This document shows positions 5,332 to 20,500 of a stretch of 64,000 bases of DNA, piece after piece (positions within the stretch are counted from its first letter, which is position 1; each line of letters starts with the position of its first letter). The stretch is from sequence record MK234886; one strand, given 5' to 3'. The translations under genes were made by a program, and so were the position numbers. The notes under the pieces were generated by a model that was given only the letters and a program-made list of their open reading frames with translations, was not told the DNA's origin and did not search any database. Source of the stretch: Escherichia phage AnYang.

Positions 5332-5339
5332 TATTTATA
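5332..5339 (-). promoter_or_regulatory. T4-type late promoter TATAAATA (minus strand)
   Basis: exact TATAAATA about 30 nt upstream of ATG 5303, leader AACTTAGGAAATA. Confidence 0.55.
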
Positions 5340-5345
5340 CAAAAA

Positions 5346-5365
5346 GCCCAACCTTTCGGAAGGGC
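5346..5365 (-). terminator. hairpin GCCCUUCCGAAAGGUUGGGC + U-run (minus strand)
   Basis: inverted repeat followed by TTTTTG on minus strand, downstream of 5372-5926 gene. Confidence 0.5.
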
Positions 5366-5371
5366 TGTAAA

Positions 5372-5926
5372 TCAGTTCTTATAGAATCGGAACGGGTTTA
5401 CGTGGAAGGCTAACATAGCCTTAGGGATTTTACGAGACAAAAGACTCTTAAGTTTCCAACCACAGTACACGCGAAGGTAAAAGGTAATACCTCCAACCTT
5501 AAGATAAGGAACCGAAGCAAAAACTCCCCATGCGTCATCATTCCACATCCATAGCCACCCGTGATGAGCTTTATCAGGGGAACCTGATTCCACATCAGGA
5601 TTACCGCGATAATGGAATTCTGAGCTACAATCACGTCCGAGTTTATGGTAAGCAAAGTTATAAGCTTTATTTCGCCATAGCCAAGCTACTCTCTGGAGAT
5701 AAACGCCAAAAGGTAGTTTTCTGATTTTAGCCCAACGTTTAATGTGACCTTTATCACCGTCAATTGGATTATCGTATGTCATCATCCAATCAAAGCCATA
5801 TGGTAATTTACCGGTCTTTTTATTGTGGAAAGGGACTACAAAAGGTGCAAGGATAACAGCCAGAACCATAGAGATAAAATCTAGAGGGACCAACAGAACC
5901 CAACTCAAATATTTTAAAAGTTTCAT
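5372..5926 (-). CDS. hypothetical membrane-anchored Trp-rich protein (184 aa), late-expressed
   Basis: N-terminal hydrophobic helix WVLLVPLDFISMVLAVILAPFVV; TATAAATA late promoter and AGGAAA RBS upstream. Confidence 0.55.
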   Translation of the reverse strand: MKLLKYLSWVLLVPLDFISMVLAVILAPFVVPFHNKKTGKLPYGFDWMMTYDNPIDGDKGHIKRWAKIRKLPFGVYLQRVAWLWRNKAYNFAYHKLGRDCSSEFHYRGNPDVESGSPDKAHHGWLWMWNDDAWGVFASVPYLKVGGITFYLRVYCGWKLKSLLSRKIPKAMLAFHVNPFRFYKN

Positions 5927-5952
5927 ATTATTTCCTAAGTTAGTTTACTACA

Positions 5953-5960
5953 TATTTATA
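5953..5960 (-). promoter_or_regulatory. T4-type late promoter TATAAATA (minus strand)
   Basis: exact TATAAATA about 27 nt upstream of ATG 5926. Confidence 0.55.
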
Positions 5961-5967
5961 CAAAAAA

Positions 5968-5989
5968 GGCCCGACCTTTCGGAAGGGCC
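5968..5989 (-). terminator. hairpin GGCCCUUCCGAAAGGUCGGGCC + U-run (minus strand)
   Basis: inverted repeat followed by TTTTTTG; third copy of same element at 47703-47725. Confidence 0.5.
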
Positions 5990-5995
5990 TTTAAC

Positions 5996-6225
5996 CTAGG
6001 GTAACCTTGTCGGGGTTCCACCTGCTAGGCAAGTGTTCGGTGCGCCGTTTCAGCTGTGATATAAGGGACTTTAAGAGGAACTCATGTACGCCTTAAAGTC
6101 GGGTCTTATTCAGGGAACTTCAGTCCGACGACTTACCGGTAGCGACCCGGTTTCTTGTTTGTTGCGCCGGTGAATGCTGGTAATCAGTCTTCATACGACG
6201 GCTTGACTATATAATAGTCTTCATT
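5996..6225 (-). ncRNA. candidate small stable RNA(s) adjacent to tRNA-Arg (positional analogue of T4 RNA C/D)
   Basis: 230 nt with no ORF over 25 codons and no RBS, between tRNA-Arg and a terminator; no canonical tRNA T-loop found. Confidence 0.25.
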
Positions 6226-6300
6226 TGGTATCCCGCCCTGGGATCGAACCAGGACCGCAAACTTAGAAGGATCGTATGCTATCCATTACACCAGCGGGAC
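6226..6300 (-). tRNA. tRNA-Arg (anticodon UCU), CCA encoded
   Basis: 75 nt cloverleaf read on minus strand: 7-bp acceptor stem, T-arm CCUGG-UUCGAUC-CCAGG, anticodon loop CUUCUAA. Confidence 0.85.
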
Positions 6301-6305
6301 GTAAT

Positions 6306-6971
6306 TCAAAATTTTATTTTACGGCCTTTATTCCAACCTTCAGGAATAATATCCGTTTTGTTAATACGTTTAGAAACTTTTTCTTCTAAAGAATGAATCC
6401 ACATTTTTCCATATCCGGAATTATTTTCACCTTGTTGGTGTTTATTTCTGGCGTGAGATTCTTTCATTTTATTTTTGGTTTCATCTGAATGGGTCTTACC
6501 CAAGAAAGATTTAGTATTTGAAAATTTCTCTCTATACTTAGGATTATCCCAAAGTTGTTTAAACCTTTCTGAACCCATTTTACGATATTTTTCTTTAAGG
6601 TCTGGGTCGTTCTCAAATCTGGTTTTAAAAGCGGCAACTCCTTTTAAGGAAGCTTCTTTCTTTTTATCTAAATATTCTTCAGTGTTTAAATGGTCCCAAC
6701 CACCTTCACCGCCTAATTTCAAATTATAAACATCGGGGCGCTTTAAAAACTCTTCAGTCACAATATTCTTTTCTGACTCAAACATAGAGATTTTATCGTC
6801 AAAGAACTCTAATATTTCTTTAGAGAAATTTTCTATACCGTATTTGGCCTGGGCCCTTTTCAAGAGTTTACCGGAACCAAAATATGCATCATTCAAATTT
6901 TCGGTTGAATGGGCTCCTATATAGATTTTATTATTAATTTTGTTTGTTATTTTATAAGTGTAATGGAACAT
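6306..6971 (-). CDS. segB: GIY-YIG homing endonuclease, SegB-like (221 aa)
   Basis: N-terminal YTYKITNKINNKIYIGA motif; sits between two tRNA genes as segB does in T4; AGGAGA RBS. Confidence 0.75.
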   Translation of the reverse strand: MFHYTYKITNKINNKIYIGAHSTENLNDAYFGSGKLLKRAQAKYGIENFSKEILEFFDDKISMFESEKNIVTEEFLKRPDVYNLKLGGEGGWDHLNTEEYLDKKKEASLKGVAAFKTRFENDPDLKEKYRKMGSERFKQLWDNPKYREKFSNTKSFLGKTHSDETKNKMKESHARNKHQQGENNSGYGKMWIHSLEEKVSKRINKTDIIPEGWNKGRKIKF

Positions 6972-7012: not shown

Positions 7013-7083
7013 TGGCCCTGGGTGGAATCGAACCACCATCCAGCGATTATGAGTCGCTCGCTTGACCGTCCAGCTACAGGGCC
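7013..7083 (-). tRNA. tRNA with CAU anticodon (Ile2/Met type), CCA not encoded
   Basis: cloverleaf on minus strand: acceptor GGCCCUG/CAGGGCC, anticodon stem-loop GCGA-CUCAUAA-UCGC, T-arm GGUGG-UUCGAUU-CCACC. Confidence 0.8.
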
Positions 7084-7393: not shown

Positions 7394-7439
7394 AATAGAC
7401 CTTGTCTATTATGAAAGGTTCTTTGAGGGAAGAACCTTT
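7394..7439. other. two adjacent hairpins (AATAGAC-ctt-GTCTATT and AAAGGTTC-N10-GAACCTTT)
   Basis: inverted repeats in the 130-nt spacer between two minus-strand genes. Confidence 0.35.
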
Positions 7440-7484
7440 GGTAATAGAGGGTATTAATGATAGAGTAATAATATCACATAATTC

Positions 7485-8356: not shown

Positions 8357-8392
8357 TTTATTCTCCAATCACTCATTTGTTTTGATAGGGCT

Positions 8393-8421
8393 ATAGTATC
8401 ACCACTAGAGCCCGTTGTAAA
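8393..8421 (-). promoter_or_regulatory. early promoter TTTACA-N17-TACTAT with stem-loop
   Basis: read on minus strand upstream of 8171-8356 gene. Confidence 0.5.
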
Positions 8422-8920: not shown

Positions 8921-8957
8921 TTTGATTTCCGTTTGGTTAGTTTGTTTTGATAGGTCT

Positions 8958-8986
8958 ATAGTATCACGCCTATAGACCTTGTAAAC
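8958..8986 (-). promoter_or_regulatory. early promoter GTTTAC-N17-TACTAT with perfect 10-bp stem-loop AGGTCTATAG...CTATAGACCT
   Basis: read on minus strand upstream of IP-like genes. Confidence 0.55.
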
Positions 8987-17595: not shown

Positions 17596-20500
17596 ATGTC
17601 TGTGCAAGCGCCTTCCGTTACTAGTTTGAGAATTGATAAACTCTCGGCTAACCATGTAAGTATTCTTTGGGATGACGTAGGCGCCAATTTCTATTATTTC
17701 GTAGAACTGGCCCAAACCAAGGATGCGGGTGAATCTATACCCGATGATAAGTTATTTTGGAGAAATTTAGGTTACACCCCGAACAATAACTGGTTCGAAG
17801 AAAGATTTATTTCTCCTAATTCGTTTTATAAAATGCGTGTCGCTGTAGCTGCTCAAGGATTTGAACAATCCGACTGGGTTTATACAGAAGAATTCGAGAC
17901 ATTTTCTACTAACGCATATACCTTCGAGCATATGCGTGAATTCACTTTATCCAATAAATTCATTGAAGAAAAATTTACCAAAAATAACCAGAGTTACGTG
18001 GATTTTAATAGCGACGCTATTATGGCCTCTATGATGACCGAAGATTTTACTTGGACTCCGGCATATTCACACCTTTCTTCAATTTCCAATTATGTATTAA
18101 AGGCCGACCGCTTCCATGAGATTCAAGGAAGTATCCAAGCCGTTTGTAAAGACCCTAATCGTTCTATTTTAATGGAGCTTGGTGGTGTACTTTACCTTTT
18201 AGAAAGATTCCAGAACACCGCTAAGGTATCTAACGATAAGGCCCAGAACTGGCATTATATCCGTTTGTTTAATGATAGAGTAGGTAATCCGGTTTCACGT
18301 ACGGCTCATTATCAAACAGACACAACAACTTATGTTCTAGGGTATGACCGTATATTTTACGGACGTAAATCAAGTGATATTCGTTGGTCTGCTGATGATG
18401 TACGTTTTAGCTCACAAGACGTGACATTTGCCAAAATTGGTAGTGATATCGATTTGGACTTCGAAATCGAAATTTTCGGTTCTTATGCCCGTTTACCATT
18501 AGCTATTTCTACTATCGCAGAAGCTATGTGTGCTTCGGATGATTTTATTTACGTTGCAGCCCGAGACAGAGTTTACAAAGCAAAAACTACTGATGCCCCT
18601 ATTGATACCGACCCAGGCTCTCCTACTTACGGTGAGAAAATATTTGAAAGTGGCTATTCGACCATAACCGGTAATCCTAAAGCGGTTTGTTATAAATTGG
18701 ATTCTATTCAAGGAAATACCTTTGCCTTAATTACGGGTGAAGTTAAAGAAGAAAGAATGGACCCTACTAAAGAAGAAAATGTGGTTGATTCTGAATCTAA
18801 AGGTGTTTATTGGTTGGATGTTGAAACTGATACATGGACCCGAGTATTTGGTAATACTGTAGAAGAGAGACGTCGTATTGAGCATGGCTATACTAGCATG
18901 TCTACCGATGGCGAAGAAATATTCTTTAGCTCAAGTAACTTCAAATATGAAGTAGAAGTTGATAACGAATTACCTTTAGAATACCCTATTGTGGCCTCAG
19001 CGGTAAAATATGTTAAGGATGAACAGTGGATTCACGATAAACATTATCTGATGATGAGCTTTAGAGCTAACAGTAAATCAGATTTTAAAGAATTCAAACC
19101 CGGTCGAATGGCTTATTATGCTGAACCGTTCTTTAGTTGGTCTAGACGCGACGGGACCCGTTCTTGGATTACCACAAGTAATCATGCAATGGTTGTTTAT
19201 AATGATGCCTTATACCAGAAAATTATTGATTTAAACAGCGGTTCTTCTCCTGAACGTATTATTCGTGAAATTTGGGATAAAGGCTTTTGTACCGTAACAT
19301 GCCCTAATATCGAATTCAATGGATTTAAAAAATACTCTTCAGGTATAATGATTCACAAATCATCAGGTGAATTGGTTGGATATTTCGAGTTCGACTACCG
19401 AGTTCGAGATGAAGTTAGAATAATCTGGAAGCCTAAAGAAATAATGTTTACGGCTGAACTTCAAAACCAAGAGCATGAAATTCCATGGACCCCTAAAGAG
19501 GAAACCGGTGAACAAGACCCTGATTTGCGTCCTTTATTGGTTAAAATGGTTCCTGATAGTTATTTGCTTCAAGATTCTAACTTTGAAAAATTCTGCGAAT
19601 ATTATCTCCAGTTTATTAGTGATGGCTCCGGCACCCATTATAATAATCTATTAAATCTTATTCGTAACCAATATCCTAGAGAAGAAGATGCCTGGGAATA
19701 CTTATGGTCTGAAATCTATAAACGCAATATCTATTTGTCTAAAGAAAAACGCGACGAAGTAGTTCGTTTCTTCCAAGCAAGACAATCGGATTTCTGGTCT
19801 ACAAAAGGTACCGAAGCTTCATATAAATTCCTGTTTAAATTGCTTTATAACGAAGATGTTGAAATTGACATCGAGTCCAAGAACTCGATTGAATATGATA
19901 TCATCGTAGAATCCGACAATATCAGTGAAGATATCGTAGGCCAAACGATTTATACCCCTACAGGAAGAAGTAATGTTACTTATATAGAACGAAATTACAA
20001 AGATGGTAAATTGCAATGGCGTTTAACCATTCACAATCTTTTAGGCCGTTTTATAGTTGGACAAGAGATTAAATCTGAACGCACCTCATTTAAAGGTATG
20101 ATAGTGCAGGGTGTACGCGGTAAAGAATTGTTAAGTAACAATATCGATTATATTAACCGTAACCGTTCTTATTATGTTATGACTATTAAATCCAACCTCC
20201 CTACTTCTCGATACCGTAATGACGTGTTGAGATTTGTCCACCCTGTAGGATTTGGTTTTATAGGTATTACGTTGCTTTCTATGTTTGTTAATGTTGGTTT
20301 GACATTAAAGCACACGGAAACCATTATTAATATACTTAAGAACTATAAGTGGGACTCAGGTCTTCCGTCCGAGTGGTACGATAGAGTTGCTGTAATCGGA
20401 TTTGATGGTAATATAGAAAGAGACCCTAGAACAGGACTTCCGGTTTATAACGTTGGGCCTAAAGCAGGCGAACCGTTCCCTATTCCTGATGGTTATGATG

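Follow-up and report, generated by a model that had tools for sequence, protein, structure and literature searches.

What fills the roughly 300 nucleotides (nt) of non-coding DNA, positions 5927-6225, next to the tRNA-Arg gene of Escherichia phage AnYang (sequence record MK234886), and what might it do? We address this question for the interval 5996-6225 of the window, by which we mean the whole 64,000-nt stretch of DNA that was analysed. The window comes from a T4-like phage of the JS98/JS10 group (Dhakavirus) with the genes around the interval on the minus strand, and the gap is conserved in hundreds of phages, clearly more than chance would allow. A first-pass annotation, made from the letters alone, had noticed the lack of genes here and had suggested counterparts of two small stable RNAs of phage T4, species 1 (rnaC) and species 2 (rnaD), or else a different non-coding RNA. 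With good confidence, we take the gene-free stretch to be an orthologue of T4 rnaD at the 3' end of a tRNA operon, accompanied by a 67-nt element that we call mini-rnaD, by a conserved trailer and by a terminator, and lacking rnaC.

An rnaD gene without its rnaC partner

A sensitive blastn search with the minus strand of 5990-6228 as query returned matches in 739 phage records, at E values from 1e-20 to 1e-58 for loci that include the annotated rnaD genes of RB6 and T4. Identity amounts to 77% over 127 nt with T4 and reaches up to 84% with other Tequatrovirus rnaD loci. At the matched site the RB6 annotation reads 'rnaD, species II RNA', then 'rnaC', and the T4 RefSeq entry (NC_000866) describes rnaD as 'small, stable RNA; species 2 RNA' (T4s002, 71053-71171) and places rnaC (T4s001) at 70908-71046. 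Alignments with T4, RB6, JS10, KIT01 and WG01 split the region into tRNA-Arg, a 67-nt insert, rnaD and a trailer, and together our alignments (A1-A3) place an rnaD orthologue of 121 nt at 6036-6156(-). Read along the minus strand, tRNA-Arg (6300-6226), rnaD (6156-6036) and a terminator (5992-5962) follow one another as they do in T4, apart from the 67-nt insert.

Rfam, searched at its gathering thresholds, reports only the two tRNAs of the window and nothing in 5996-6225, and when 5850-6350 was scanned permissively (E up to 10) the only additional matches were noise outside the interval, so rnaD apparently has no Rfam family. A covariance-model search, as the earlier annotation had advised, became informative with a model of our own (R1), which was built from alignment A3 and run over the whole window with filters off: it matches 6156-6036(-) at 124.1 bits (E 1.8e-27). 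We assign the element to rnaD because the blastn matches to annotated loci, the alignments, the 124-bit model score and the T4-like synteny all point there. By homology, synteny and structure it is a member of the known rnaD family, and it is not rnaC, a tRNA or a member of any Rfam family.

While rnaD aligns with its RB6 and T4 relatives at the same position, neither alignments nor blastn detected an rnaC homologue in the interval or the rest of the window, so that the suggestion of two counterparts was correct as regards rnaD and mistaken as regards rnaC. KIT01 and WG01 carry rnaC on a segment of 145 nt; exactly this segment is missing from JS10 and from the window, here between ...GGCGCACCGAA and CACTTGCC, and directly 3' of GGCGCACCGAA we find CACTTGCCTAGCAGGTGGAACCCCGACAAGG..., the sequence that comes after rnaC in T4. 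In the sister Dhakaviruses KIT01 and WG01, rnaC is about 98.6% identical to the RB6 query. A 28-nt rnaC match at 18703-18730 lies inside an open reading frame (ORF) of 1030 amino acids (aa) and was dismissed as chance, and the rnaC T-arm CCGGG-UUCGAAU-CCCGG finds no match in the interval, nor does a T-loop motif occur there.

Where rnaC is present (L001 1630-1768, L252 1409-1547 and 25 other loci from Tequatro-, Mosig- and Dhakavirus) it is 97-100% identical over 139 nt, an inter-genus identity far above typical. It is tRNA-like in having a canonical T-arm, which is also a potential SegB recognition motif (GGTTCGAATCC).

Structure and conservation

Alignment A3 comprises 24 distinct rnaD homologues from annotated phages and IMG/VR contigs. 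Folded with RNAalifold, following the earlier advice to predict structure together with homologous regions, it yields a consensus of a 5' hairpin (P1) and a long irregular rod (P2-P3-P4-distal hairpin), a structure derived in this analysis and not taken from a published model. P1 (6135-6151, minus strand like all that follows), recovered by RNAalifold, pair counts and the minimum free energy (MFE) fold, has a 5-bp stem ACCGG/CCGGU and an invariant 7-nt loop GUCGCUA. The rod, for which RNAalifold and pair counts agree, spans P2 to P4 at 6042-6132. At its base P2 (G-CGUCG/CGGCGC; 6132 and 6130-6126 paired with 6047-6042) joins the 5' and 3' parts of the RNA, and a short single-stranded tail comes after it. 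An invariant internal loop, GACUGA/GAAA, separates P2 from P3 (WGUU/AGCW; 6119-6116 with 6055-6052), beyond which a U-G/C-A step and P4 (RUAAG/CUUAY) occupy 6112-6105 and 6065-6057. The window copy forms all consensus P1-P4 pairs in the R1 alignment, and its single-sequence MFE fold gives these helices too.

The aligned copies indicate that the helices are kept by compensatory changes, which are seen in P1, P3 and P4. The closing pair of P1 is A-U in 17, G-C in 6 and G-U in 1 of the 24 sequences, its remaining pairs being invariant or changing from C-G to U-G; the outer P3 pair turns from U-A (15 sequences) to A-U (8), with one U-G of P3 becoming C-G; and a P4 pair turns from G-C (10) to A-U (7), next to further double changes in that helix. 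Over the 28 consensus pairs 94.5% of cells are paired, as against 32-50% when partners are slid, and double changes occur at nine pairs, with a covariation score that none of 500 shuffles reached. As for the strand, U-G pairs are found in P2 (24/24) and P3 (23/24) that would be A-C mismatches on the opposite strand, from which we conclude that the RNA is encoded on the minus strand; the fold z-score is -3.1 for the minus and -1.6 for the plus strand.

Conservation is strongest near the base of the molecule. Of 733 records, 732 have a 53-nt 5' half of rnaD with at least 90% identity; they come from Tequatro-, Mosig- and Dhakavirus and from phages of Yersinia, Hafnia, Citrobacter and Salmonella hosts, and alignment A3 shows no variation in the 3' strand CACAGCWGAAACGGCGC or in the unpaired positions of the proximal internal loops. 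By contrast, the rod's tip is hypervariable and cannot be aligned between types: we distinguish four unrelated cassettes, one T4-like, one RB6/KIT01-like, one shared by JS98 and the window (type C; GACUUUAAGG...CCUCUUAAAGUC, 6066-6104 on the minus strand, as delimited by the alignments of homologues) and one found in loci L008 and L030. Cassette types are common to different genera, the RB6 type for example occurring in Dhakavirus ESCO10. Type C is found in 30 records, all of them Dhakavirus and none with any annotation at this place. The window holds no second copy of this cassette and no complement to it, and the idea that the distal loop acts as antisense of a target was given up since no complementary site exists there.

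To judge from motif scans for distant homologues in IMG/VR and JGI metagenomes, which gave close relatives and chance matches only (25 loci from viral contigs or annotated phages and 11 metagenome loci, with one 14-base pattern returning essentially all noise), the rnaD family is narrow. Nor does it seem to be borrowed from the host or to mimic it, as rnaD has no blastn match in 5,426 complete E. coli genomes.

Several points weigh against this account of rnaD or limit it. The ends of the mature RNA, probably about 6159 and 6039, are extrapolated from T4 and RB6 annotations that themselves differ by 1-2 nt. The 3' CCA encoded in T4 and RB6 is not conserved, as the window copy ends in GCGCACCG with a single-stranded tail ACCG where T4 has ACCA, and relatives have ACAG, ACCU and others; a tRNA-like CCA end is therefore no family feature at the DNA level, and with the tail ACCG it would require trimming and repair. 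P2 is invariant in all 24 sequences, its U-G pair included, and as it never varies, covariation neither backs nor contradicts it. The closing pair of P3 is U-U in L010, L201 and L243, later metagenomic copies included. Given the close kinship of the sequences and recombination in the region, covariation counts and conservation in part reflect shared ancestry or recent spread. Finally, the window rnaD folded alone is of unremarkable stability (z -1.08).

Three side observations concern the same RNA. The T4 RefSeq sequence (L252, about 1630) shows one G more in rnaD (GGACTGATGGTTCC) than the recent T4 assembly OZ209057 and every other homologue, likely an old sequencing error or a strain difference. 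In the type C tip (6075-6100) the sense strand reads as a Shine-Dalgarno (SD)-like AAGGCGUAC followed by AUG AGU UCC UCU UAA (4 codons) and the antisense strand as part of a 29-codon ORF; neither length is conserved across type C variants. Lastly, rnaC (L001) contains GUAGCG twice, within the repeated GAGUAGCGU, and this is the complement of the invariant CGCUAC in the P1 loop (6140-6145), so that pairing rules would permit a kissing contact between rnaD and rnaC. Such a contact is possible, and not essential, given that the window phage keeps the P1 loop without rnaC.

A candidate second copy of rnaD

The alternative of 'a different ncRNA' (non-coding RNA) raised in the first-pass annotation turned out differently from what was foreseen: between tRNA-Arg and rnaD lies a 67-nt tandem element (mini-rnaD, 6158-6224 on the minus strand; R1, alignments and fold), an insertion relative to T4, RB6 and JS10, that looks like a truncated second copy of rnaD and not like a new kind of RNA. 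It consists of a leader (AAUGAAG), a hairpin P1' (6219-6214/6210-6205), the linker AAG, a helix P2' and a 24-nt remnant. P2' (GC-GUCG/CGGCGC; 6202-6196/6169-6164) closes the remnant, and the element ends in ...GCGCAACA. This 3' end plus the adjoining AACAAGAA resembles ...ACCA-AAYRAGAA, the junction that in relatives connects tRNA-Arg or rnaD with the unit that follows. Predicted to fold at -16.4 kcal/mol (z -3.35), mini-rnaD occurs in 25 phage records only, all Dhakavirus-like and 98.8-100% identical.

A plain MAFFT alignment of mini-rnaD with rnaD was uninformative, and a covariance-model alignment was used. R1 (filters off) matches 6224-6158(-) at 20.0 bits (E 0.0073), the next match in the window reaching 9.5 bits, and aligns the element end to end: leader A-GAA, a hairpin for P1, the AAG linker, the P2 strands GCCGUCG/CGGCGC and the tail. 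Missing are 76 central model positions, in whose place stand 24 nt. An equivalent match is present in KIT01, WG01, L012 and L030. As a control, the best score from 93 kb of unrelated viral DNA was 11.8 bits; an antisense tRNA-Ser, however, reached 17.3 bits, a result that counts against kinship with rnaD and makes the score of 20 by itself only moderately convincing.

Sequence comparison makes it probable that the element is a truncated tandem paralogue of rnaD, and we regard this as the best reading because of its tandem position, its strand, the order of its motifs and its stable fold. Most likely it would be a decayed duplicate in which only the determinants of excision were kept. Opposed to this is the view that the 67 nt are no paralogue at all and merely an unrelated recombination scar, left by homing and co-conversion of the SegB type. 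Its confinement to 25 near-identical genomes, its constant company with a T4-type tRNA-Arg, the repute of the region as a homing and recombination hotspot and the modest model score, so close to that of the antisense tRNA-Ser, would all suit a scar. What a scar leaves unexplained is that order and spacing of rnaD are matched throughout (leader, hairpin, AAG linker, both P2 strands at 8/9 and 12/14 identical positions, A-rich 3' linker), that the element stands in tandem with rnaD on the same strand and that unrelated DNA does not exceed 11.8 bits with R1. To our minds, a scar is thus an unlikely explanation, albeit one worth keeping in sight.

The 3' end of the transcript

Downstream of rnaD, at 5996-6035(-), alignment and folding define a conserved 3' trailer with a hairpin CACUUGC-CUA-GCAGGUG (6035-6029/6025-6019), then GAACCCCGACAAGG... 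Written as AACACTTGCC(T)TAGCAGGTGGAACCCCGACAAGG, the trailer is essentially invariant in about 30 loci, irrespective of whether it comes after rnaC, rnaD or another element, and it is followed in those loci by a variable small hairpin, a terminator and usually a late promoter. A distant complementary partner with which it might form an RNase III-type stem (with an upstream leader) was not found within 3.5 kb. The trailer could act as a processing signal, belong to a branched terminator (CCCCGAC can base-pair with the terminator stem's 3' half) or represent an RNA of the 3' external transcribed spacer (3'ETS) type. It was also observed that the trailer (AACACUUGCCUAGCAGGUGGAACCCCGACAAGG) is more conserved than the RNAs preceding it.

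The terminator/late-promoter unit that the first-pass annotation had placed next to the interval is indeed there. Terminator scan and folding identify an intrinsic terminator of the tRNA/rnaD transcript at 5962-5992(-), a GC hairpin (5992-5965) with a U-run, which the alignments show to be homologous to the terminator after rnaC in T4. An exact match to the T4-type late promoter motif, TATAAATA at 5953-5960(-), comes next; it serves the ORF 5926-5372 and marks the end of the RNA unit. The motif occurs 20 times in the window compared with 7.5 expected. As a side observation, the unit of GC hairpin terminator, TATAAATA and AACTTAGGAAATA ribosome binding site (RBS) region is repeated, at 5332-5370 and 5953-5994(-), ahead of the consecutive minus-strand ORFs 5926-5372 and 5303-4695.

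Discussion

How would rnaD be made? In T4, transcription from a middle promoter that lies upstream of the tRNA cluster crosses all of it and terminates after the species I RNA gene, giving a precursor of about 1.75 kb with eight tRNAs, segB mRNA and the species I and II RNAs (PMC2330249). By analogy with T4, the window phage would produce one transcript, tRNA(CAU)-segB-tRNA-Arg-mini-rnaD-rnaD-trailer, ending at 5992-5962, from which host tRNA-maturation nucleases would excise rnaD. Endonucleolytic cuts in the A-rich linkers, 3' trimming up to P2 and possibly CCA repair are the steps one may envisage. Excision by tRNA-maturation enzymes fits the arrangement in Providencia phage PSTCR6, where rnaD sits directly between tRNA-Arg and tRNA-Ile.

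What the RNA does is a harder question, and the literature tells against confident answers: a 2010 review, a 2022 omics study and a 2025 evolution study give the function of rnaC and rnaD as unknown, and in these reviews and omics papers they stand out as the only T4 gene products of their abundance without an assigned role. T4 rnaD itself accumulates as a small stable RNA (T4 RefSeq note; RNA-seq classification), and T4 RNAC and RNAD have been described as late-accumulating RNAs by RNA-seq, along with a Northern blot using an RNAC probe. In the 2025 study, each of the three lines of phage BW-1 that adapted to E. coli ECOR34 acquired the same single-nucleotide polymorphism (SNP) in rnaD, a weak hint of a host-specific role. 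From the coordinates in that paper we estimate its place at about 41-45 nt from the 3' end of rnaD, within the distal hairpin. Other recent work sees SegB-associated tRNA islands in the service of evading tRNA-cleaving defences. This, and the sharing of tip cassettes by different genera, points weakly the same way.

In view of the invariance of the proximal loops and the free variation of the tip, we tentatively propose that mature rnaD could be a stable protein-binding platform or decoy RNA, an inference and one that we would not press. On this view an RNA-binding factor of host or phage would dock on the P1 loop and on the invariant proximal loops, and the distal hairpin might be a spacer or a host-specific module. 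The RNA may act within a tRNA island that serves to tune translation and to counter host defences directed at tRNAs. A bolder and rather doubtful version sees a two-module RNA in a host-specific arms race, an invariant platform with horizontally exchanged tip cassettes that works as decoy or inhibitor of tRNA-directed or RNA-sensing defence. Here the P1 loop and the GACUGA/GAAA and CCC/AUCAC loops would make up the platform and bind a conserved host factor, the decoy being part of a SegB-mobilised tRNA/anti-defence island; if this were true, the truncated copy and the patchy occurrence of rnaC would be moments caught in a rapid turnover of the island.

The main rival to a decoy is a purely cis-acting role, in which the segment is a 3' external spacer that guides or protects the processing of the upstream tRNAs and terminates the transcript, the stable RNA being a functionless by-product. 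Its place at the 3' end of a tRNA transcript and directly before the terminator, the clean loss of rnaC, the tolerance of a decayed copy (mini-rnaD) and decades in which no function was found are what such a spacer would predict. Yet rnaD is equally conserved where a protein gene stands between it and tRNA-Arg, as in Mosigvirus phages, PhiZZ23 and ESCO10, so that maturation of tRNA-Arg alone does not explain its conservation. Moreover, loop nucleotides are invariant in more than 700 genomes while the hairpin tip varies, which fits a specific recognition surface, and the adaptive SNP of BW-1 falls in rnaD itself. We therefore think it improbable that rnaD is a spacer and nothing else.

A degenerate or unconventional tRNA, or a tRNA-like pseudogene missed by the detectors, might be suspected from the location in a tRNA cluster, from P2 and its single-stranded A-CC(A/G) tail that resemble an acceptor end, from the tRNA-arm geometry of P1 (5-bp stem, 7-nt loop) and from the canonical T-arm of the sister RNA rnaC. 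Neither ARAGORN nor Rfam (up to E 10) scores a tRNA in the interval, leaving the small-RNA idea unrefuted on this count, and the earlier statement that a canonical T-loop is missing holds, since GTTCRANYC has no match in 5996-6225 on either strand and its nearest occurrences are the T-loops of the two tRNAs. Besides, the topology (a 5' hairpin and one long rod) is no cloverleaf, and the P1 loop GUCGCUA, read by eye, fits neither the anticodon-loop nor the T-loop consensus, which makes a hidden tRNA very unlikely indeed.

Least credible of all, to the point of being negligible, is a small protein. ORFs of at least 20 aa in the interval all have 21-29 codons, and the longer candidate, 6084-6173(+) with 29 codons, qualifies the earlier statement that no ORF with an RBS exists only in so far as an SD-like AAGAGGA stands 5 nt before its ATG at 6084: it is antisense to every neighbouring gene, starts in the hypervariable hairpin tip of just 30 Dhakavirus genomes where T4, RB6 and type D phages have no ATG, and shows substitutions that track helix pairing and not codon positions, so that we judge it spurious, while the other candidate (6194-6120 on the minus strand, 24 codons) starts without an SD in the 67-nt insertion that most relatives lack.

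How, then, does the locus compare with known RNAs? With T4 rnaD the window element shares homologous sequence, the tRNA strand, the place between tRNA-Arg and terminator, a length of about 120 nt and the same predicted helices. It differs from it in the type C tip, the ACCG tail, the 67-nt truncated copy that separates it from tRNA-Arg and the trailer that takes the place of rnaC directly after it; rnaC, the expected operon neighbour, is kept in KIT01 and WG01 and absent here. These features refine a known element and reveal no new kind of RNA.

In E. coli, functional RNAs of the 3'ETS(leuZ) type are reportedly released from the 3' end of tRNA operon transcripts. The likeness to our locus is positional only, with a 3' place in a tRNA polycistron, presumed release by tRNA nucleases, an intrinsic terminator at the end and a trailer whose conservation exceeds that of its surroundings. 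Sequence similarity is lacking, and rnaD, unlike 3'ETS(leuZ), is internal to its transcript and highly structured instead of presenting a single-stranded seed. Merely by analogy, 6S RNA, Y RNAs and 4.5S RNA are comparable in size (about 100-180 nt), in a rod closed by 5'/3' pairing, in conserved internal loops and in high stability, whereas the window RNA has no Rfam match up to E 10 and no homologue in the 5,426 E. coli genomes. A ribozyme, signal recognition particle RNA, 6S RNA, transfer-messenger RNA and Y RNA were dropped, as nothing in the interval matched Rfam up to that threshold, and a hammerhead-like CUGAUG...GAAA, checked by hand, lacks stem I and does not fit the register. Our search for T4 literature on Hfq or RIL-seq found none.

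In the literature surveyed, which leaves out the classic species 1/2 papers and Miller 2003, we have not come across a description of a Dhakavirus rnaD orthologue, of the rnaC-less configuration, of a truncated tandem copy, of a comparative structure or of the cassette-like tip. A phage lineage with rnaD in which rnaC is cleanly lost offers natural genetics for asking what the two RNAs do; the truncated copy, in keeping only leader, P1, P2 and tail, hints at the parts needed for excision; and the division between an invariant proximal domain and a swappable tip indicates where to mutate and what to use as bait. Annotation would profit as well, with rnaD unannotated in all 30 type C Dhakavirus genomes and apparently without a family in Rfam.

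Neighbouring genes and further observations

The 421 nt around the interval are 98-99% identical to LQ5 and EcWhh-1 and 93-94% identical to KIT01, WG01, QL01 and MX01. The upstream neighbour on the same transcript, tRNA-Arg(UCU) at 6226-6300(-), was called by ARAGORN (tct) and by Rfam (tRNA, 48.8 bits), and in alignments A1 and A2 it is identical to tRNA-Arg of T4. ARAGORN lists one further tRNA in the whole window, with anticodon CAU at 7013-7083(-), which Rfam finds as well. Although ARAGORN names it Met(cat), its acceptor stem and anticodon loop are those of a T4 gene annotated as tRNA-Ile (CAU), and it may be a lysidine-dependent Ile tRNA. Between the two tRNAs, in the same order as in T4, lies an ORF for a 221-aa GIY-YIG homing endonuclease (6306-6971, minus strand) with 76% identity to T4 SegB; the sister phages KIT01, WG01 and JS10 have no such ORF. 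At the junction the encoded CCA of tRNA(CAU) is lost, as in T4.

Dhakavirus ESCO10 (L022 75-629) has a 555-nt coding sequence, annotated 'head vertex protein', between tRNA-Arg and rnaD. It has the length of the window ORF 5372-5926, which comes after the terminator, and this suggests that gene order around rnaD has been shuffled.

Further upstream, a strong hairpin at 7405-7448 (19-nt arms, 89% complementary, 6-nt loop) precedes a 90-aa ORF (7361-7089) and is possibly a terminator or processing site that heads the tRNA/segB unit. A 38-nt direct repeat (8376-8413 and 8941-8978, 87% identical) includes TATAGTATCAC and a small hairpin. It is found again in spacers between genes upstream and probably represents a recurrent promoter/terminator module.

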